A stretch of DNA of 36,445 bases from an uncultured virus (IMG/VR IMGVR_UViG_3300017643_000041). Its lineage: Duplodnaviria > Heunggongvirae > Uroviricota > Caudoviricetes. The notes beneath the pieces were generated by a model, which was given only the letters and a program-made list of their open reading frames with translations, was not told the origin of the DNA and ran no database searches. The position numbers and the translations under genes were made by a program. Shown piece by piece: positions 16,379 to 33,365 of the stretch (positions are counted from its first letter, which is position 1; every line of letters starts with the position of its first letter). The stretch lies in the IMG/VR virus record IMGVR_UViG_3300017643_000041; one strand, written 5' to 3'.

Positions 16379-16752
16379 ATTTGCAGCTTATTAATAAGTC
16401 TATTTACGATAGACTGCGAAATATCAAAGGTATTACCGTAGCAGATAGCGTTACAGTAAATGCCAAACGTCCCTATATAGTGTTGGCTGAAACAACAGTT
16501 ACTTCCTGGAACTCCAAAACCACCCAAGGTTATGAAGTCACCACGGGAGTACTTGTTTATTCGGACTATAAGGGTGATAAGGAAATAAATGAAATTGTGG
16601 CCAAGGTACATGAAGTGCTTAGTAGTAAGATTTTATTGCCTTTAGGCTACAAGGTCATCACGCAAAGCATTGAAACAGTTAGTGTGGAGCGGATGGAAGA
16701 GTACCGAGAAGCACAGCTAGATGTAAATTTAAAAATATTTAAGGGGGAATAA
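16375..16752 (+). CDS. Tail completion/terminator (DUF3168-like)
   Basis: PYIVLAE and VYSDYKGDKEI motifs; synteny. Confidence 0.82.
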   Translation: MNLQLINKSIYDRLRNIKGITVADSVTVNAKRPYIVLAETTVTSWNSKTTQGYEVTTGVLVYSDYKGDKEINEIVAKVHEVLSSKILLPLGYKVITQSIETVSVERMEEYREAQLDVNLKIFKGE

Positions 16753-16755
16753 ACC

Positions 16756-17202
16756 ATGAGTGGAACACCAGTAGATGGCGTAGATTTTTTAATTAGTGTG
16801 AATACAAGTACGACAGCAGTACCGGAATACAAGATTTTAGGGGGTCAGAGGAGTGCTACCTTTAAGCGTCAGGCTGACGAAATAGATGCCAGTTCTAAAA
16901 CCAGTGAAGGTTGGAAGGATACTATTCCAGGGCTTCGCAGCTGGGGCATTGATGCAGATGCCTTAGTGCTAGAAAGTGACGATGCCTACGCAAAGCTTGA
17001 CGAGTGCTATATGAATAGAACTCCTGTGGATATTAAGTATACGCGCAAGGACGGCTCCTTTTGGACGGGCAAGGCAACTATTACCGACCTTTCCGAATCC
17101 AGTCCTCATAACGATGTAGCAACCTATACCTTGACCTTGTCCGGTATTGGTAAGCCGGTAAGAACTGAGGCAGAAGTAGCAGGAACGGAGGATGGCGAAT
17201 GA
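16756..17202 (+). CDS. Major tail protein (TP901-1-like)
   Basis: GGQRSATFKRQADEIDASSK...GLRSWGID...TYTLTLSG.G signature. Confidence 0.9.
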   Translation: MSGTPVDGVDFLISVNTSTTAVPEYKILGGQRSATFKRQADEIDASSKTSEGWKDTIPGLRSWGIDADALVLESDDAYAKLDECYMNRTPVDIKYTRKDGSFWTGKATITDLSESSPHNDVATYTLTLSGIGKPVRTEAEVAGTEDGE

Positions 17203-17543
17203 TTTATATTAAACTAGATGGTAAAGATAAACCCTTGCGTTATGACATCAACTCCGTGACACGTATTGAAGAACTCTTTGGTGGTAAGAGTTTAATTACT
17301 ATGCTTTCTAATCCTGCCTATTTTGGCTTTAGTCTTATTCGCGCTCTCTTATGGGGCGGTTTAAGATATCGTGAAAAAGGTTTAACCTTGGACAGAACGG
17401 GCCTCCTCATGCAGGAATATTTAGATGCAGGTGGTTCTTTGGGAGATATTAGCGATAAGGTAATGGCTGCTCTTATGGAAGCTGGTATCTTTAAAGCAAA
17501 TGCTGAGGAAGAAGTGAGCGAAGAGGAAGAGGGTTTAAACTAG
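17199..17543 (+). CDS. Tail assembly chaperone G
   Basis: Lies between the major tail and tape measure genes; ends in slippery GGG TTT AAA C just before the stop. Confidence 0.85.
   Translation: MIYIKLDGKDKPLRYDINSVTRIEELFGGKSLITMLSNPAYFGFSLIRALLWGGLRYREKGLTLDRTGLLMQEYLDAGGSLGDISDKVMAALMEAGIFKANAEEEVSEEEEGLN
17531..17540 (+). other. Programmed -1 ribosomal frameshift site (G GGT TTA / T TTA AAC)
   Basis: Two overlapping X XXY YYZ heptamers in the correct phase. The -1 frame is open from here into ORF 17573-17881. Confidence 0.85.
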
Positions 17544-17572
17544 CTCAGTCTTGCACGGAATATGCTGAGGAG

Positions 17573-17881
17573 ATGGCAGGATATGCTCTGGTGGAACTTG
17601 GCCTTAAGCCTTGGGAATTTAAAAGGCTTACCCTTAGTGAATTTATGCGCATGCTAAAGCTTCAAAGGGAGGCTAAGCGCCAAGGGTATATCCGCAGGGC
17701 TGAGCTAGTAACTATTGTGATAAACGCCTGTGGAATGAATCTCAAAAAGGGCGTAGAAGTAAAAGATTTATTAGGTTTCGATCCCTACAAGAAGGAAACG
17801 GAACTAATTACCAAAGAAACTGCAGCAGAAGATTTGGCGCTACTTAAACAAAAGCTAGGAGGTGAGAGCAGTGGACGCTAA
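17573..17881 (+). CDS. Tail assembly chaperone T segment (expressed as G-T fusion)
   Basis: LGLKPWEFKRLTLSEF motif typical of gpT; lies in the -1 frame of G. Confidence 0.8.
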   Translation: MAGYALVELGLKPWEFKRLTLSEFMRMLKLQREAKRQGYIRRAELVTIVINACGMNLKKGVEVKDLLGFDPYKKETELITKETAAEDLALLKQKLGGESSGR

Positions 17882-25955: not shown

Positions 25956-28174
25956 TGGCAACTATTGCAGCGAGCCTAGTCTTAGCTGCTAATCCTATGA
26001 GCTTTTTCAGCTCTTTTTTAGTCATGGCAGCTGCTAGTATGGTAGATAGCTATATTATCTCTGCTTTAACGCCTGGTTCAGAAGTAAGTCAAGGTCAGGT
26101 AAATGATCTCTCCGTTCAAACTTGCACAGTAGGTACTGGTATGGCCAAAGGCTACGGCAAGGTAAGACTTACTGGAAATATTATCTGGGGGACGAAGTTT
26201 ACCGAGCATATTAAGAAAACAACTTCTTCTTCTGGAGGTAAGGGCGGTGGCGGAGCTAAAACTACCACAACTACTTATACCTATTCTGCATCCTTTGCTA
26301 TTGCATTGGCCAATGGCCCTATTGTAGGCATTGGTGATGTATGGGCGGATGGCAATGATATATCTTTAAAGGACTTAGATTACAGACTTTATACGGGAAC
26401 AGACACGCAAATGCCTGATGACTTTATGGAGGCTATCGAAGGTGCAGGAAATGTGCCAGCCTATAGAGGTATGGCTTACATTGTCTTTCGTAATGTTATC
26501 TTGACGGACTTTGGTAATAGAATACCTACCTTTAGCTTTGTGGTAGAGTTTCCTAAAAATGATTTAAAAGAAATAGTGGAAGATATTAGTGAAGAAGCAG
26601 GACTTATTATTCAGCAGGAAGTAGATGCTACTAGCTTAGAAGGGCTCAAGGTAGATGGCTTTCTCCGCAGTGGTACTAAAACCTTCCGTGAGCAAATGGA
26701 AGAGCTAAGAGTGGTACACATCTTTGAAGGTGTGGAGCGCTTTGGGAAGATAGTCTTTGCTCCTCGTGACTTTTCTAGGGTAATAGCAGTAAGCTCAGGA
26801 GAAATAGGAGCCTATGAGAATAAAGCCAGTGATGAGCCTATTGCTACAGCTACCAAGTATGATATGGAGTTACCGAGACGTCTTACCATTAAATATCTGT
26901 CCAAGGATAATGATTACCAGACTGGTAGTCAAACTGGCTACAGACAATTAACCGGTGCTATTACGGAGCAAAGCGTATCTACTTCTGTAGTTTTAACAGA
27001 TAGCGCAGCTAAGGCCGTAGCAGAGATGAGGTTGTACGAATTATGGATGGCAAGGACTAGTCATGATTTTAAGCTACCCATGAAGTATGGCTATATTTTG
27101 CCGGGAGATATTTTGCAATTATCCATGCCCAATGCTACAGGTACACAGCTGGTGGTAGTAAACAAGGCGAACTTTGGTAGACCTGGCATAAATGTAATAT
27201 CTGCTACCAATGTGAATGCTAGTAACTATAAGCTAGTAACGCGTCCGGTGGATGAAGTGCCAGATGTCATAGAAAGTATTCCTAGTGAAGTATTTGTTTT
27301 TATTCTAGATTTTTCCAAGGTGCCTATGGATACTGCTAGCGGTGATGATTACATTTATCTAGCTATTGGTGCTAAGCAATTCTATGGCGCTAATGTTTAC
27401 CGCTCTTATGATGCAGGCGTAAGCTACGAGCATCAGCTAACTTTTACTGGAGCCGCTACCTTTGGCAAGGCACTTACTGTTCTAGAAGGTGCAAATCATC
27501 AGTATTGGGATAATGGGCATAGCGTAGATATTGAACTAGCTGCAGGAGCTTTGGAAAGCCATAGCAAAGAAGAACTTTTGAACTTTGCCAATGCTGCAGT
27601 TTTGGGTGATGAGGTTATTCAATTTACAAATGCCGAGCTTATAGCAGAAAATACCTATAGGCTGAGTGGTCTACTTAGAGGACGCAATGGAACTGAGCAT
27701 AGGGTAAATAGTCATGTCATAGGAGAACGATTTATTCTTCTAAGTGTTAGTGGCGTAATGCAGTTGCCTATTTCTACAGAAGATTGGTATTCAGAGGTTA
27801 ATCTGAAGATTGGGCCTAGGGTACATAACATCATCAACGATAGCTACAAAAACTACAACTTCACACCTCAAGGTGAAATTTATAGGCCTTGGAGCGTGTG
27901 TAGCGTAAAAGTAAAGCGTGATGGTGCGAAATACATGATTTCATGGAAACGCAGAACTCGTAAAAATGGCGCCTGGAAGGATTATGCAGATGTGCCTTTA
28001 AGTGAAAATACCGAGGCCTACGAAGTGGAGCTATTAGATAAAGCTGGTAAGGTGTTAGAAACTAGAAGTACTGGTGTACCTAGCCTAGAATACGAAGGAG
28101 CAGGTTACATGGCCAGAATTTATCAAATTAGTGAAGTCAGAGGTAGGGGCCTAGGAATGGAGGTAATTTTATGA
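25955..28174 (+). CDS. Central tail tip / host-specificity protein (Phage-tail_3, GTA g15-like)
   Basis: YG.VRL.GNIIW, GGKGGGG, PAYRGMAYIVF, DFGNRIP, YRLSGLLRGRNGTE and WKRRTR motifs. Confidence 0.9.
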   Translation: MATIAASLVLAANPMSFFSSFLVMAAASMVDSYIISALTPGSEVSQGQVNDLSVQTCTVGTGMAKGYGKVRLTGNIIWGTKFTEHIKKTTSSSGGKGGGGAKTTTTTYTYSASFAIALANGPIVGIGDVWADGNDISLKDLDYRLYTGTDTQMPDDFMEAIEGAGNVPAYRGMAYIVFRNVILTDFGNRIPTFSFVVEFPKNDLKEIVEDISEEAGLIIQQEVDATSLEGLKVDGFLRSGTKTFREQMEELRVVHIFEGVERFGKIVFAPRDFSRVIAVSSGEIGAYENKASDEPIATATKYDMELPRRLTIKYLSKDNDYQTGSQTGYRQLTGAITEQSVSTSVVLTDSAAKAVAEMRLYELWMARTSHDFKLPMKYGYILPGDILQLSMPNATGTQLVVVNKANFGRPGINVISATNVNASNYKLVTRPVDEVPDVIESIPSEVFVFILDFSKVPMDTASGDDYIYLAIGAKQFYGANVYRSYDAGVSYEHQLTFTGAATFGKALTVLEGANHQYWDNGHSVDIELAAGALESHSKEELLNFANAAVLGDEVIQFTNAELIAENTYRLSGLLRGRNGTEHRVNSHVIGERFILLSVSGVMQLPISTEDWYSEVNLKIGPRVHNIINDSYKNYNFTPQGEIYRPWSVCSVKVKRDGAKYMISWKRRTRKNGAWKDYADVPLSENTEAYEVELLDKAGKVLETRSTGVPSLEYEGAGYMARIYQISEVRGRGLGMEVIL

Positions 28175-28578
28175 TGACAAAAAGAATAGGACTGGAATAC
28201 CTAGAGGTAAACCAATCCCAAAAGGAAGTAACGGTAAATGAAGCCTTTAATAGGCTAGACCTTTTCGTAGGCCTTACTGTAGATAATATTTTGAGCAGTC
28301 CTCCTAGCAGTGCTAGTGAAGGGGCTGCTTTTTTAGTAGGTACAAATCCTACTGGGGCCTTTAGTGGCAAGAAAAACTATATTGCACATTACCTCAATGG
28401 CGCATACGAATTCTATGCTCCCATTGAAGGGATGAGGATATATGTGACTTCTAGCAAAGAGGACTACAGATATTTATGTGCTACTTGGCTGAAGATAACT
28501 GAACCAAATATTCAAGTAGTGACAAGCCTTCCGACAAATCTTGTGGCTGGTGTTATTTATATGGTGACGGAATCATGA
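28171..28578 (+). CDS. DUF2793 tail fibre-associated protein
   Basis: QSQKEVTVNEAFNRLD...PTGAFSG...P.EG signature. Confidence 0.88.
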   Translation: MMTKRIGLEYLEVNQSQKEVTVNEAFNRLDLFVGLTVDNILSSPPSSASEGAAFLVGTNPTGAFSGKKNYIAHYLNGAYEFYAPIEGMRIYVTSSKEDYRYLCATWLKITEPNIQVVTSLPTNLVAGVIYMVTES

Positions 28579-29078
28579 TTACTATTGGGGGAAAAAAGGT
28601 GAAAAATATCATGGTAGGCAGTAAAAATGTCAGCAAAGTCTATGTTGGCAGCAAGCTAGTATGGTCAAGTGGTGAAATGCCAGTCGAGCCTACCAACATT
28701 TATGATAAGTTTGTGGCAGATATTTGGGCCTATGTGCGCTATGCAAATAAGGTATTTAATATTTCTACCAATGCTAGTAACCTCATGGCACGCTGCGTGG
28801 TAGAGCCTAAAACGACTTATATTGTAGAAATACTCATGGATACACGCTTTAGGGTATTTAGCTATACGGGCCAGCCGGTAAGTGGAACAGAGCTAAGCGC
28901 GGTCTTAATAGATGAGCTGGACGATAATGGGGAAGGTTCTCTTAATGCTAAACGCAGACTTACAATTACCACGGGCGCTGATCATAATATGCTTTATATC
29001 GGCTATTGGACAAGTACTGGTAGTTTAAGTTCAGAAGATGTGAGAAATAGCATAAAAATATATAAGGAGAGTGATTAA
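28575..29078 (+). CDS. Putative receptor-binding / fibre accessory protein
   Basis: N-terminal repeated (I/V)xVGSKxV motif ending in VW, followed by a beta-rich domain; last tail gene. Confidence 0.65.
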   Translation: MITIGGKKVKNIMVGSKNVSKVYVGSKLVWSSGEMPVEPTNIYDKFVADIWAYVRYANKVFNISTNASNLMARCVVEPKTTYIVEILMDTRFRVFSYTGQPVSGTELSAVLIDELDDNGEGSLNAKRRLTITTGADHNMLYIGYWTSTGSLSSEDVRNSIKIYKESD

Positions 29079-29588
29079 ATGAATAAGGAAGCATTATATG
29101 GGGCTATTATGGATAGCCTCAAGAATTTACAGGACGTCTGGGCAGTAAAGCTCATGACGTCTTTTTTCTTGGCGGTAGTATACAATCTGCACGTGCAGCT
29201 CCTAGTAGCTTTCGCTGTTTTAGTGTTTTTAGACTTAGGCACTAAGTGGCTGGCATTATCCAAGATGCATTTGGAGAACCAAGGCAAGGAAACAAATCTT
29301 TGGTATGAGCTGAAGAATATACCAAAAGCAAGACGAGCTGGCTATATTCGCTCTATGGAAATGAAAAATAGATTTATTGGCAAGATGTTCATTTACTGCC
29401 TTTTGACTTTTGCCGGAGGTCTTGTAGATGTGATGCTCGTATCTCAAGCCAAGCCATCACTTGCTGTGGCACTAGTTGTAGGCTATTTATCCGTCAATGA
29501 GCTTTTATCTATTGTAGAGAATTTGGAAGATGCTGGCGTAGAAGAAGCGAAACGCCTTAAAGAAATTATCGATAAGAAAAGGGGTTAG
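29079..29588 (+). CDS. Phage holin (holin_4-like)
   Basis: Several hydrophobic segments, LDLGTK and ELLSIVENL...G motifs; adjacent to the endolysin. Confidence 0.88.
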   Translation: MNKEALYGAIMDSLKNLQDVWAVKLMTSFFLAVVYNLHVQLLVAFAVLVFLDLGTKWLALSKMHLENQGKETNLWYELKNIPKARRAGYIRSMEMKNRFIGKMFIYCLLTFAGGLVDVMLVSQAKPSLAVALVVGYLSVNELLSIVENLEDAGVEEAKRLKEIIDKKRG

Positions 29589-29593
29589 AATTT

Positions 29594-30139
29594 ATGAAGA
29601 AGATATCCTTAATTAAATTACGCAAACTAGCAAGACGTGCCAATGGCTATGTGGACACCATTTATGTCCATTGGAGTGCCGGGCGCTACCATCAGTTTTT
29701 TGACGATTACCATATCAATGTGGATGATGATGGCAGTATCTATATTAGCACTACTGACCTTACAGAAACCTTGCCACATACCTGGCAGAGAAATAGCAGA
29801 GCTATTGGTATCTGCTTTGCCGGCTGCTATGGGGCAGAGCCTCATAATGGCTTTGATACCGACTTTGGTGACTATCCACCTACGCAAGCTCAAATGGATG
29901 GAGTATGTCAAGCTATTGCAATTTTGTGTGAGGAGCTAGGCCTGCCTGTGGATTATGAGCATGTAAAGACTCACTGCGAGGCAGCAGAGGAAGATGACTA
30001 TGGACCCAGTACGACTTGTGAGCGTTGGGACTTGTGGTATTTACCAGATTTACCTAATGAAGAGGCGGTTAAACATGGTGGAGAGGTAATTCGTGGCAAA
30101 ACGGCCTGGTGGCAGAAAAAAACTGACCATAACATTTGA
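29594..30139 (+). CDS. Endolysin, N-acetylmuramoyl-L-alanine amidase (Amidase_2)
   Basis: IYVHWSA, YHINVDDDG, HTWQRNS.AIGI, PTQAQ and TH motifs; no cell-wall-binding domain. Confidence 0.9.
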   Translation: MKKISLIKLRKLARRANGYVDTIYVHWSAGRYHQFFDDYHINVDDDGSIYISTTDLTETLPHTWQRNSRAIGICFAGCYGAEPHNGFDTDFGDYPPTQAQMDGVCQAIAILCEELGLPVDYEHVKTHCEAAEEDDYGPSTTCERWDLWYLPDLPNEEAVKHGGEVIRGKTAWWQKKTDHNI

Positions 30140-30157
30140 GTATGGTCAGTTAAAGTA

Positions 30158-30451
30158 TTATTTAGCTAAAGGTGCAATTACTAAAGTTTTTCCTAAGGGA
30201 GCAAGAACCTTTAGCACCGTACTAAGATTGGGAGAGGTACTTCCTTTTTCCATTCTAGCAATGATGGGTTGCTTAACACCGCTAAGCTCTTCTAATTTCT
30301 TTTGACTAAGACCTTGTTCGTGTCGCGCTTTTATAAGCTCACCAATTAGAGCTACTCGCAGATTACTGGCTGCTATTTCTTCTGGGGTAAAGAATTCCTT
30401 TTCTACTTCATCCCAGCTGTGTCCAATAGGACTAAATTTTTTAGTGGTCAT
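30158..30451 (-). CDS. XRE/HigA-like HTH antitoxin (orphan)
   Basis: FTPEEIAASNLRVALIGELIKAR.EQGLSQKKLEELSGVKQPIIARMEKG, typical of antitoxins partnered with RelE/Gp49 toxins; AAGGAG RBS. Confidence 0.85.
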   Translation of the reverse strand: MTTKKFSPIGHSWDEVEKEFFTPEEIAASNLRVALIGELIKARHEQGLSQKKLEELSGVKQPIIARMEKGSTSPNLSTVLKVLAPLGKTLVIAPLAK

Positions 30452-30486
30452 TTCTATTTGCTCCTTTCAGCGTATTCCTTATACAT

Positions 30487-30515
30487 ACAATACTTTAAAG
30501 TTATTGAAAATGCAA
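30487..30515 (-). promoter_or_regulatory. Antitoxin promoter with palindromic operator
   Basis: Minus strand TTGCAT-17 bp-TATTGT; palindrome ACTTTAAAGT (30492-30501) lies in the spacer next to the -10. Confidence 0.6.
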
Positions 30516-30692
30516 GTCATAATGCAAAAAATGCCATAAAGAATATTGGCAAAAAAACCTCTGAAAAACGACCGCGAGATTTGCCCTGTGAGCGGTTTTT
30601 AGAAGGTGGTTGGTACTGTTTGACCTATGAAAAAACGACTATAATACACACTTTGAGCATTATAGCCGTTTATTAGAATTTGAGGTGGTGAA

Positions 30693-31058
30693 ATGGATAA
30701 TGAAAAGAAAAAATATATGCTTTGCGGTGCTGTTTGCTTTGTGCTTATTTTGCTTGCCGGCTATTTCTTATGCAGGGACGTATCAGATAACGGAACAGGA
30801 ACTCGCCCAATTAGAGATGAACTTACTACAGCTACAGGAAAGCAACGAGCACTCACAAAAGGAATTGAAGGAGTTGAAGCTAGAACTGAAAACATCCAAG
30901 AGCGAGTTAGTAAAAGCGAAGCAGGAATTGACGCTGCTACAGACCGAGCTGAGGACGTTGAGGGAAAACTCACTAGCTCAGGAGAGCTTATTGCAAAATG
31001 CCAACAAATCCTTAGAGATATACGCGCAAGAGGAGAAGCAAAGAACGAAAGCAATTAG
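30693..31058 (+). CDS. Putative inner-membrane spanin: N-terminal TM plus coiled coil
   Basis: KKK followed by a ~20-aa hydrophobic anchor, heptad-like region and a single C-terminal Cys; GAGGTG RBS; end of lysis cassette. Confidence 0.65.
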   Translation: MDNEKKKYMLCGAVCFVLILLAGYFLCRDVSDNGTGTRPIRDELTTATGKQRALTKGIEGVEARTENIQERVSKSEAGIDAATDRAEDVEGKLTSSGELIAKCQQILRDIRARGEAKNESN

Positions 31059-31122
31059 GACTCAGCGCAATGTGGCATATGGCATTGGCGTAGGATTACT
31101 CTATGCTTTGATAAGGAAATAG
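30700..31122 (+). CDS. Putative spanin partner: signal peptide, coiled coil, C-terminal hydrophobic tail (+1 frame overlap)
   Basis: MKRKNICFAVLFALCLFCLPAISYA signal peptide, Leu/Gln/Glu heptads, VAYGIGVGLLYALIRK tail. Confidence 0.7.
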   Translation: MKRKNICFAVLFALCLFCLPAISYAGTYQITEQELAQLEMNLLQLQESNEHSQKELKELKLELKTSKSELVKAKQELTLLQTELRTLRENSLAQESLLQNANKSLEIYAQEEKQRTKAIRTQRNVAYGIGVGLLYALIRK

Positions 31123-31132
31123 TGGCTTTACT

Positions 31133-31173
31133 TACCCATCAGGGATTAAATTCCTTGGTGGGTATATTTTTTT
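31133..31173 (+). terminator. Terminator at the end of the late operon
   Basis: TACCCATCAGGGA / TCCTTGGTGGGTA stem plus T tract. Confidence 0.8.
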
Positions 31174-31176
31174 GTG

Positions 31177-31207
31177 AAAAAGACCGCCAGCATATAGCTA
31201 ACGGTCT
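31177..31207 (-). terminator. Terminator for the reverse-strand sigma-like gene
   Basis: AGACCG / CGGTCT stem with an A run at 31177-31181 (U tract on the minus strand). Confidence 0.55.
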
Positions 31208-31214
31208 AATGAAA

Positions 31215-31745
31215 CTAAATGATTAAATCTGGATATTTTTCGCGGATGCAAGAAGCAATTTTTTTGAGTCTAGATAACATGGTTGTACGGTGAATGCCTA
31301 ATTTGTTAGCAATGTCAGTGTCGGATAAACCATTAAGACGCATTGATGCCACTTTTAGTGCAAGTGGAGCAACGGTTTGTAGATGCTCGATAATATCCCC
31401 AGCTATAAATTGGTTGTCCACGGCATCTTCAAATGGTAAAATATCTGCTTCAAGAAATTCAAGCATATTGAAATCTTGACCTTCGTCAGATTGGTAAATA
31501 TAATCTAACGAGAGCTGGTTGCCAGCAACTTTGTACTTGCAGGCTTCACAGTCCATGTCACAGAACCACCATTTTTTTCTTGGACAGATGCATTTACCGC
31601 ATCGTTGTTGAGATTGGCGGTAGTAACTAATATGCTTTGTGCTTTCTCGATATACGTCTTCAGAAACCGGTACCCATATTTTTTGAGAACGTAGATAAAT
31701 ACTGAAGTTTTGCTCTTTTTTGCTTTGATTGTCATTGATTGCCAT
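31215..31745 (-). CDS. Mobile-element sigma-70 region-4-like HTH regulator with Cys-rich motif
   Basis: CICP....W.CDMDCEAC motif and C-terminal GLSDTDIANKLGIHRTTMLSRLKK HTH; GAGGAG RBS. Confidence 0.8.
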   Translation of the reverse strand: MAINDNQSKKEQNFSIYLRSQKIWVPVSEDVYRESTKHISYYRQSQQRCGKCICPRKKWWFCDMDCEACKYKVAGNQLSLDYIYQSDEGQDFNMLEFLEADILPFEDAVDNQFIAGDIIEHLQTVAPLALKVASMRLNGLSDTDIANKLGIHRTTMLSRLKKIASCIREKYPDLII

Positions 31746-31751
31746 TTGATT

Positions 31752-31946
31752 TCTCCTCTCGAATTGTCGAGAAGCGGAGATAAACCAAATGGCTGCCAGT
31801 ATTGCTTTTCATAAGATGGTCACCTCATACGGATTGCTCCGCCTCAAATTGGTGACCAGCCGTTCGTTAAGCTGGCACTGTATATTCAATTTCTTCCATC
31901 CATCAGCTACGAACACACTACCCGGCCGGGATAATAGTGAGCTGAT
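31752..31946 (-). ncRNA. Candidate structured cis-regulatory leader RNA
   Basis: Multiple nested and alternative stems, one of which sequesters the RBS (detailed in findings). Confidence 0.5.
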
Positions 31947-32061
31947 TTCAGGAAAAGTAGTTTAATGTCATGCTTGGGACGTGCAGTTTGACGGTATGTG
32001 TCCTTTTCTCAATGTAAAAATCCATAATGAACATGAAATATCCTTTTCACAAACTAAAAGT

Positions 32062-32228: not shown

Positions 32229-33365
32229 GTGGAATTCAAAGTATTTTTTTCAATGCTAAAAAACCGAATATCAGATGGTGCGGATGTCCCGTATTTCTTC
32301 AGAGATTTAATTGCGATGATTACGGATGTTGCGGAAGATGAATGGGGCACACCGAAAGACCCGTCAACGAAGTTATCAAAGGAAAGCACAATTCGGTCAT
32401 ATGCGAAGCGAAATTTGTCCCAGAAATTTGCGCAAAGCATTGTTTACAGACTGACACCAGAAGCCTTTGTAAGTACAATTGAAGATCGTCCGGATACAGT
32501 GCTGCGTCTGTTAGCCGAGGATTACAAGGGCTATGATGCATCTGCTGATGAGAGCAATATTGCAACACTGTTGGCGAATTGTTTTGTAGATATCATTCGC
32601 AGGACTGCCGGACTTGTGCAGCAGACAGAGTTAGAGAGGCAGAAGCAGATTCAGGCAGAAGTTGATATAAGAAACAGGTACGGAGATTACTTGATTAATG
32701 AAGCCGGTTATACATGTCCGTTTCCGGGTTGCGGGCATTCTCTTGTGATTAGCAATACTGGAAAGTCGACGAATTTGTTCAATGTTGCGCTTATAGATAA
32801 GAAAAAAGCGCCAGAGGTTTCAAACCTACTGGCGCTGTGTCCGAGATGCTATGGTACATATTCTGTTGATGATAATCCAAAGATTAGTAAGGAACTTAAA
32901 TCTGTAAAAAAAATAATTATAAGTCACAATAAAAACATACAGCTACTGGATGACCTTCCGCTTGAAAAAGGGATTGTTGGTGTTATATCAAGGATACCGA
33001 AATTGAATGAAAAGGAACTATCAGTGGTATCTTTTGACCCAAAGGAGATTCAGCAAAAGCTGGAGCCTTCTGAGAATATGGCACTTTATATAACGGTAAA
33101 AACGTATGTGGCTACTTACTATGTTAAGCTTCGTGAAATCATGATGAATGCTGATAAACGTGGAAGCATTGATTATGACGAAGTACAAGACCAGATGCGA
33201 GCAATATATAAACGCATGAAAAAGACGAAAAAATCGAATGCGGAAATATTCAACGAGATTGCGCAGAAAATCCACAAGGTGAGCCTACAAGAGGATATTT
33301 ACTGCCAAATTGTTGTATCCTACTTCATTCAGAGTTGCGAGGTGTTTGATGCAATTACCGAATAA
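32229..33365 (+). CDS. lmuA: Lamassu/ABC-three-component effector (HNH-like Zn domain plus CTD)
   Basis: CPFPGC...NLLALCPRC and C-terminal IVVSYFIQSCEVFD, characteristic of ABC-3C CTDs; operon context. Confidence 0.8.
   Translation: MEFKVFFSMLKNRISDGADVPYFFRDLIAMITDVAEDEWGTPKDPSTKLSKESTIRSYAKRNLSQKFAQSIVYRLTPEAFVSTIEDRPDTVLRLLAEDYKGYDASADESNIATLLANCFVDIIRRTAGLVQQTELERQKQIQAEVDIRNRYGDYLINEAGYTCPFPGCGHSLVISNTGKSTNLFNVALIDKKKAPEVSNLLALCPRCYGTYSVDDNPKISKELKSVKKIIISHNKNIQLLDDLPLEKGIVGVISRIPKLNEKELSVVSFDPKEIQQKLEPSENMALYITVKTYVATYYVKLREIMMNADKRGSIDYDEVQDQMRAIYKRMKKTKKSNAEIFNEIAQKIHKVSLQEDIYCQIVVSYFIQSCEVFDAITE

Follow-up and report, generated by a model that had tools for sequence, protein, structure and literature searches.

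The 36,445-nucleotide (nt) genome of an uncultured virus of the Caudoviricetes (IMG/VR record IMGVR_UViG_3300017643_000041; "the window" below means this whole stretch) carries two genes, here called A and B, that read nearly the same DNA in two frames at positions 30,693 to 31,122. The window is a tailed-phage genome in which terminase, portal-capsid, and tail genes are followed by lysis genes. Dual coding at this locus is genuine, and the pair forms the final module of the lysis cassette. Spanins are well known, embedded and overlapped gene pairs included; two-component systems are found in phages of Proteobacteria, with lambda Rz/Rz1 (embedded) and P2 LysB/LysC (overlapped) as examples.

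Open reading frame (ORF) B (30693-31058, + strand) starts with ATG at 30693 and encodes 121 amino acids; ORF A (30700-31122, +) starts with ATG at 30700 and encodes 140 amino acids in the +1 frame relative to B. They share 359 nt (30700-31058), out of 366 nt of B and 423 nt of A. These coordinates, lengths, overlap, and frame relation had been given by an earlier reading made from the letters and an ORF list (the sequence-only reading), and all proved exact when the sequence was read again. A Shine-Dalgarno-like motif, GAGGTGGTG (30682-30690, +), ends 2 nt before the ATG of B and 9 nt before that of A, and is also found upstream of the double start in related loci L001 to L021. Directly after the stop of A lies a terminator-like element of the intrinsic type (31133-31174, +), a hairpin of 13 pairs (31133-31164) with a T-run, and promoter-like matches stand upstream of the pair at 30494-30532.

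The product of B resembles an i-spanin, a type II membrane protein. Its K-rich N-terminus (MDNEKKKY) is followed by a 20-residue hydrophobic stretch (putative transmembrane [TM] segment, residues 8-27, nt 30714-30773, +) and then by a polar, periodic ectodomain, with an SDNG motif, a heptad helical region, and a conserved Cys103 within CQxILxxIRxRG. The product of A begins with MKRKN, a 17-residue hydrophobic core, and SYA↓G, together forming a putative signal peptide (residues 1-25, nt 30700-30774, +) with two Cys in its core, neither of which fits a lipobox. The conserved mature N-terminus, TYxITExELxQLE, leads into one long helix, with a QRN motif further on, and the periodic helix runs into VAYGIGVGLLYALI-RK at the C-terminus, where a hydrophobic segment (residues 125-138, nt 31072-31113, +) precedes the final RK. 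Hydrophobic periodicity at 3.5 residues gave z=3.4 for A (reached by 4 of 500 shuffles) and z=11.2 for B (reached by 0 of 500). AlphaFold2, run with a 50-row alignment, modelled A as helices at residues 4-18 and 32-139 (mean predicted local distance difference test score [pLDDT], 88.6), and a protein atlas model of B is helical (pLDDT, 0.78).

Related loci were gathered in two rounds. The first gave one genome locus and 23 viral-contig loci (25 sequences with the window), and the second, a profile search of genome G002 and 100 relatives, gave 12 and 31 further extracted stretches. Removal of duplicates left 51 distinct A/B pairs, with alignments of 50 A and 50 B members. In the first round, frame B was open over its full length in 25/25 sequences, the ATG of B lying 7 nt (or 4 nt) before the start of A and its stop 64 nt before that of A (70 nt in one locus); L021 ends prematurely at a contig end. 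The third sense frame (+1 from A) holds 6 to 20 stops in related loci. Across all stretches, 72 stop-to-stop ORFs match the A profile, and 68 of them overlap a match to the B profile in the +2 frame. In three others (L067, L069, and L070), the +2 frame is open and encodes an N-terminal hydrophobic segment but has diverged too far for the B profile; the fourth A match lacking a B match comes from a decayed second copy in L043, of which it is a fragment. All 51 distinct loci keep both frames intact, A identity across them falls to about 20%, and the two starts lie 4 to 16 nt apart in most. The sequence-only reading had taken both frames for real genes and had named interruption of one frame in homologues as a point that would tell against it; the two-frame observation is confirmed, far beyond chance. 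Public records hold 4 proteins called in frame A and 10 called in frame B, the choice varying with the gene caller.

The probability that either frame is open by chance was calculated under two nulls. With the A protein fixed and codon usage taken from 12 long window ORFs (exact dynamic programming), an open B had a probability of 2e-5 in the window and between 4e-8 and 2e-5 in each of the 14 distinct sequences tested, while the reciprocal null, with B fixed, gave 2e-6 to 3e-4 for an open A. The codon usage of the gene itself, a conservative null in that this usage is already shaped by the overlap, gave 3e-4 to 0.1 for an open B at each of the 51 loci (median, 0.01).

Substitutions were classed by their effect in the two frames and pooled within three clades of close relatives (window/L001/L002, L003/L009/L011/L012, and L013/L016/L019), whose pairs are not independent. 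Differences per site were 0.086 where non-synonymous in both frames (dNN), 0.130 where silent in B only (dNS), 0.197 where silent in A only (dSN), and 0.76 where silent in both (dSS, about 39 sites only). The ordering, with dNN<dNS and dSN<dSS, points to purifying selection in both frames, the stronger on A; A is better conserved than B in 84 of 91 sequence pairs. Insertions and deletions in the two alignments are 7-codon blocks, so that the heptad register is preserved in both frames.

An antisense ORF of 97 amino acids (30761-31054, -) overlies the dual-coding region of the window and served as an internal control; its frame is open for at least 90 codons in 15/51 loci, and it was rejected as a third gene and taken for a by-product of composition. 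Programmed frameshifting between A and B was set aside because a start codon of its own serves each frame at all distinct loci. More than one copy of the pair is found on several contigs and in several genomes. L043 has a second, frame-broken copy (L043:3831-4225) 1.3 kb after the intact one, two diverged copies lie on one viral contig in three cases (L003/L011, L004/L015, and L005/L018), and G073:C7 has four copies and G067 three; multiple diverged copies suggest several related prophages per host.

The features of the window proteins recur across the family. An N-terminal hydrophobic segment is present in B in 50/50 relatives. Close to it, on the outer side of the membrane, comes (S/P)DNGxG, and CQxILxxIRxRG stands at the C-terminal end, its Cys kept in 31/50. 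A has an N-terminal signal-like segment in 50/50, with small residues at -1 and -3 and then the conserved (T)YxITExELxxLE. QRN follows further on, and the hydrophobic segment at the C-terminus is short, finishes in K/R, and is above threshold in 43/50. No Cys is conserved in A; a strict lipobox ([LVI][ASTVI][GAS]C) occurs in 1/50 relatives, a relaxed form in 4/50, and none in the window. Hydrophobic periodicity exceeds z=2 in 49/50 A and 50/50 B members. The topologies proposed by the sequence-only reading held in most relatives as in the window: B as an N-anchored i-spanin-like protein, A with a signal of the signal peptidase I type, no lipobox, and a hydrophobic C-terminal tail, and helical periodicity in both.

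A Pfam scan of the 50 A and 50 B members returned scattered coiled-coil families and nothing specific. One A-frame relative (P0002, 81% identical) carries a precomputed assignment to PF28006.1, which is not in the Pfam copy scanned; a recent Pfam family may thus already cover A. In PHROG, 20/50 B relatives match phrog_18860 (unknown function; best E=7e-8). Six Rz-like spanin families collect 11 member-matches among the 50 B members (1 to 3 members each, E of 5e-4 to 2e-6), and any other annotated category collects a single one. For A, 9/50 relatives match phrog_6631 (unknown function), the window protein matches phrog_28255 (unknown function, E=4e-4), and one member matches a holin PHROG.

Upstream of the pair, the window encodes a holin of 169 amino acids (29079-29588, +; PF05105 Phage_holin_4_1, E=3e-9; PHROG 199 holin) and an endolysin of 181 amino acids, an N-acetylmuramoyl-L-alanine amidase (29594-30139, +; PF01510 Amidase_2, E=8e-12; PHROG 5867, E=1.5e-31). 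The endolysin is single-domain, with no wall-binding domain, and in the phage collection it matches cyanophages and one uncultured faecal phage most closely. A helix-turn-helix (HTH) regulator gene on the reverse strand (30158-30451, -; Pfam HTH_3, E=1.4e-11) separates the endolysin from the pair. The module does not include it, and it is absent at that position in the closest relatives, L001 and L002, where a geneless gap of 128 nt takes its place. The DNA of this gene is 68 to 73% identical to regulators of Streptococcus satellite phages.

Across the family, the nearest upstream ORF on the same strand encodes a peptidoglycan hydrolase in 38 of the 45 distinct loci scanned (4 loci with no upstream ORF in reach and 2 near-duplicates were left out). 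These hydrolases belong to Amidase_2, Amidase_3, Glyco_hydro_25, Peptidase_M15_3, and VgrG3-like_C, and all are short (92 to 224 amino acids) and single-domain; the remaining upstream ORFs are six with no Pfam match and one DUF4406. The linkage survives the exchange of one endolysin family for another, and this speaks for the pair as a lysis module. Many pairs begin within 14 nt of the hydrolase stop or overlap it, implying co-transcription; in many other loci, the gap from endolysin to pair is 100 to 260 nt. In the window, L002, L023, and L024, a holin of the PF05105 family is encoded upstream, and recombinase genes are often found downstream of the pair.

Initiation differs between the two frames. 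A starts with TTG or GTG in 25/51 distinct loci where B has ATG, and the distance between starts varies from 4 to 16 nt or more. In the lineage of L057, L056, and L059, where the start region of the pair reads ATGGAGGTGnnAAAAATTG, the TTG of A lies 16 nt after the ATG of B, and GGAGGTG, within the first codons of B and 7 nt before that TTG, could serve as a separate ribosome-binding site for A.

In three genomes, the C-terminus of A takes another form. The A proteins of L061 (2342-2857, -), L063 (2459-2986), and L062 (2492-3013) keep the signal peptide and rod, and B is intact in all three; the terminal helix is replaced by a tail of about 50 amino acids with alternating polarity, ending in ...WVSVLA, ...WLSVLV, and ...NYKALVW. 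The usual outer-membrane β-signal is an aromatic residue at the C-terminus, preceded by alternating hydrophobic ones. Between L061 and L063, the differences are conservative, as expected of a translated protein. AlphaFold2 modelled the L061 protein as a helix (residues 35-130) and two strands (150-158 and 163-171; block pLDDT, 65 to 80).

The tail of L061 resembles, at an E of about 1e-6 and 35% identity, the C-terminal end of another protein. This is a single chain of about 190 to 225 amino acids, with an N-terminal TM segment, a linker, and a β-looking tail ending in ...ATYSW, ...LRYTY, or ...ITYTF. This protein is encoded at five loci in prophages of diderm Firmicute genomes (L077:1501-2073; L078:1498-2112, -; L079:1405-2085; L080:1399-2055; L081:1477-2100), of which L077 and L078 are the same loci as L073/L074. 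By eye, it follows a holin-like and an endolysin-like ORF in L079 and L080; a small ORF or a gap intervenes in L077 and L078, and an endolysin-like ORF is all that was seen upstream in L081. It is a candidate unimolecular spanin analogue with a polarity opposite to that of T1 gp11. In these prophages, the slot after the endolysin therefore holds an A/B pair, a pair with a β-tailed A, or a single chain with an inner-membrane TM segment and the same β tail. From this we infer that the job of the module is to connect the inner and outer membranes, the C-terminus of A being the outer-membrane end.

The hosts are diderm Firmicutes, that of the window itself by inference. L001, whose A is 84% identical to that of the window, lies in genome G002, and the A profile matches 38 of 101 genomes (G002 and its 100 relatives). 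Omp85/BamA was found in 98/101, including all 38 carriers (a monoderm host, another point that the sequence-only reading had named against itself, is thus not borne out), whereas LolA gave one marginal match in 101. The profile Spo0A_C, which among controls matches only Bacillus subtilis, was found in 22/101; a strong pair match, BamA, and Spo0A occur together in G066, G067, G073, G089, G096, and G100. G002 carries an Omp85/BamA gene and an LpxC ORF (444 amino acids) about 6 kb apart (contig C22:20670-28400), and searches of it for LptD and LolA gave no match. This genome is titled Acholeplasmataceae despite its BamA and LpxC, and the title looks wrong or the bin mixed. Window DNA from 12000 to 31200 matches prophages in 37/101 relatives, and G029:C5 is co-linear with the window, with capsid region, endolysin, and pair in order. 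WP_307761001.1, labelled uncultured Phascolarctobacterium sp. and seen on an 863-kb contig, belongs to B cluster 4 (clustering at 90% identity), the representative of which (P0010) is 76% identical to window B; Phascolarctobacterium belongs to the class Negativicutes. PMC5007114 reports no LolA/LolB homologues in any Negativicute genome, and PMC10665443 states that outer-membrane lipoproteins and Lol homologues have not been identified in Veillonella parvula.

A tblastn search of 50,697 phage records gave no match for window A, window B, the B protein of L034, or the single-chain protein of L080. The A protein of L045 gave one match, to an uncultured faecal phage (MT836582.1), and none to a cultured phage. 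No other phage record has a detectable pair (MT836582.1:16596-17662); this one is a "Bacteriophage sp." of 21.8 kb, unannotated and derived from human faeces, in which an endolysin homologue (16596-17123) is followed by the A match (17321-17662). In a blastn search of window positions 28000 to 32000 against the phage collection, nothing but the HTH gene matched. The terminase was rejected as a host indicator, being 84 to 88% identical to phages of many Firmicutes.

The reading that we somewhat favour, at slightly better than an even chance, is that A and B form a two-component spanin analogue that dispenses with a lipoprotein and is adapted to diderm Firmicutes (Negativicutes). The setting would be a Negativicute cell with a lipopolysaccharide outer membrane and no Lol pathway or known outer-membrane lipoproteins. 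A and B would be translated off one mRNA from start codons a few bases apart. B would be anchored in the inner membrane by its N-terminal helix and, like Rz, reach into the periplasm with a heptad helical rod; A would be exported by Sec, cut by signal peptidase I, and form a rod about 16 nm long with its C-terminal end as a membrane anchor. In three relatives, this anchor would be a β-strand tail with a C-terminus like that of outer-membrane proteins, which suggests that the C-terminus of A faces or enters the outer membrane. The conserved mature N-terminus of A may meet the conserved C-terminal tip of B (CQxILxxIRxRG), and the bridge formed by A and B would disrupt the outer membrane, or fuse it, after wall removal by holin and endolysin. 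A broader form of the proposal is held more tentatively, at somewhat less than an even chance: that phages of Lol-less diderm Firmicutes use a lipoprotein-independent spanin to bridge the envelope and rupture it, with A anchored in the outer membrane by its C-terminal helix or, in some lineages, by a β tail of the β-barrel assembly machinery (BAM) type, and that related phages reduce the system to a single chain with an N-terminal TM segment and that β tail. The interpretation in the sequence-only reading is thus partly supported. The dual genes, the topologies, the place in the lysis cassette (one reverse gene intervening in the window), and the diderm, Lol-less hosts stand; its view of A and B as co-initiated 1:1 partners is doubtful, given the TTG and GTG starts of A, the variable spacing, and the second Shine-Dalgarno sequence in some lineages.

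Three other explanations were weighed. One frame alone might be coding, the other being an open shadow frame produced by the purine-rich, T-poor codon use of a coiled coil. Some alternative frames of coiled-coil genes do contain few stops, a 97-codon ORF lies on the antisense strand of the window as well, and the own-codon probability reaches 0.1 at single loci; the antisense frame is kept in less than a third of loci, however, whereas the A/B frames are open with a start codon and conserved motifs in 51/51 at A identities of only about 20 to 40%. The TM segment in every aligned B, the ordering of substitution classes, and the choice of either frame by gene callers in different records also speak against a shadow frame, which we find scarcely credible. 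The pair might instead be a moron or lysogenic-conversion module (for example, one that modifies the envelope or excludes superinfecting phages). The prophage would then express it without regard to lysis, and it would simply have come to lie at the end of the late operon. The window lends itself to that view: its pair is detached from the endolysin by the reverse HTH gene and 553 nt and, moron-like, has its own promoter-like matches and terminator, while elsewhere 100- to 260-nt gaps are common and recombinase genes often come next downstream. Yet the linkage to the endolysin holds through five endolysin families, many pairs abut or overlap the endolysin stop, and morons are seldom so widely conserved in position, so that we regard this explanation as decidedly unlikely.

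Both proteins might also reside in the inner membrane and act earlier, as holin/antiholin modulators, lysis-timing factors, or a periplasmic complex that releases the OmpM-peptidoglycan tether instead of joining the membranes. AlphaFold2 models the C-terminal segment of A as a continuous, hydrophobic α-helix ending in R/K, and a hydrophobic helix with RK is normally an inner-membrane stop-transfer signal; on that model, A and B would both be inner-membrane proteins with no link to the outer membrane. The N-in TM segment of B and the position in the lysis cassette fit this equally, and antiparallel pairing of A with B would put both anchors in one membrane. Against it, a role that spans the envelope is indicated by the β-tail variants and by the single-chain TM/β-tail protein found in the slot of the pair, no Pfam holin family resembles A or B (the one holin PHROG match of an A member apart), and rods of about 90 residues exceed what a modulator would need; we rate it as rather unlikely. 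Other observations weigh against a lipoprotein-free spanin analogue as well. The β-tail variants account for only 3/51 loci; their tails alone gave no Pfam match (E up to 10), the L061 model gave nothing against PDB in Foldseek at E≤0.001, and phmmer of the L062 variant against PDB sequences returned generic coiled coils only (E≥0.2). The Rz-like PHROG matches of B are weak and may be driven by composition, and A also matches tape-measure, SbcC-like, and other coiled-coil families. In L048 (G039:C13), A has one internal TAA beside an intact B. As to exclusivity to diderm hosts, the check made was the search of 50,697 phage records, in which five queries found one uncultured phage and no cultured one. 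For the periplasmic parts of B (residues 28-121) and A (residues 26-123), complex prediction from 50-row alignments gave scores of 0.24 and 0.27, below the mark of 0.32, a result that speaks neither way on binding.

As a spanin analogue, the pair would share several traits with Rz/Rz1: it comes last in a holin-endolysin-spanin cassette, one partner (B) has type II topology in the inner membrane and a coiled coil as its periplasmic domain, one gene is read in the +1 frame relative to the gene that starts before it, and the hosts have an outer membrane (BamA in all 38 carrier genomes). Rz has a conserved periplasmic Cys, and B likewise has one. Rz1, however, is a small proline-rich lipoprotein embedded late in Rz, whereas A is a 140-residue coiled-coil protein with a Sec/signal peptidase I-type signal, a C-terminal anchor, and no lipobox, and its overlap with B is nearly total, with starts 4 to 16 nt apart in most loci. 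Likeness in sequence to the Rz families amounts to the weak PHROG matches, with no Pfam match. T1 gp11 is an outer-membrane lipoprotein with a C-terminal inner-membrane TM domain and a β-rich periplasmic domain. Like it, A has an N-terminal signal and a C-terminal membrane anchor in one chain, and the single-chain proteins of L077 to L081 appear built to reach both membranes; unlike it, A lacks a lipobox, is all-helical, and is always accompanied by B, and the single-chain proteins have the opposite polarity, with an N-terminal TM segment and a C-terminal β tail. MlaD of V. parvula, from the same host clade, appears to follow the same design: it bridges the envelope with an N-terminal inner-membrane TM segment, a long helical region, and a C-terminal β-barrel as outer-membrane anchor in place of a lipoprotein partner (PMC10665443). 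MlaD serves lipid transport in the host and contains an MCE domain, A and B were not found to be homologous to it, and window A ends in a helix rather than a β-barrel.

PHROG families 18860 (B) and 6631 and 28255 (A) have no annotated function, and the DNA shared by the two genes is not recorded there. No paper dealing with spanins, or with factors for outer-membrane lysis, in Negativicute phages turned up in a literature search that did not extend to subscription journals. As far as this search shows, the non-lipoprotein partner, the near-complete co-extension, the host clade, and the interchangeable C-terminal anchors are undescribed.

Two further genes lie downstream of the pair in the window. 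One encodes a sigma-like/HTH protein (31215-31745, -; phrog_13787), and the other a 378-residue protein (32229-33365, +; ABC-3C CTD11 PF20277, E=3e-36; phrog_6948, E=1e-138), possibly an accessory or defence gene.

About 120 codons read in two frames over 51 loci provide an unusually clean data set on co-evolution, and the region, if our reading is true, would be among the longest conserved fully dual-coding regions known in a phage. Annotation pipelines could then come to recognise a third lysis gene here, where gene callers now report only one frame and vary in their choice. If true, the broader proposal would add a third independent way of disrupting the outer membrane. Negativicutes (Veillonella, Phascolarctobacterium, Dialister, Megasphaera, and kin) abound in the gut and the mouth, and phage exit through their Lol-less outer membrane is undescribed in the literature searched; a lipoprotein-free spanin analogue, if true, would be a natural probe of how proteins are delivered to the outer membrane in diderms that lack Lol.

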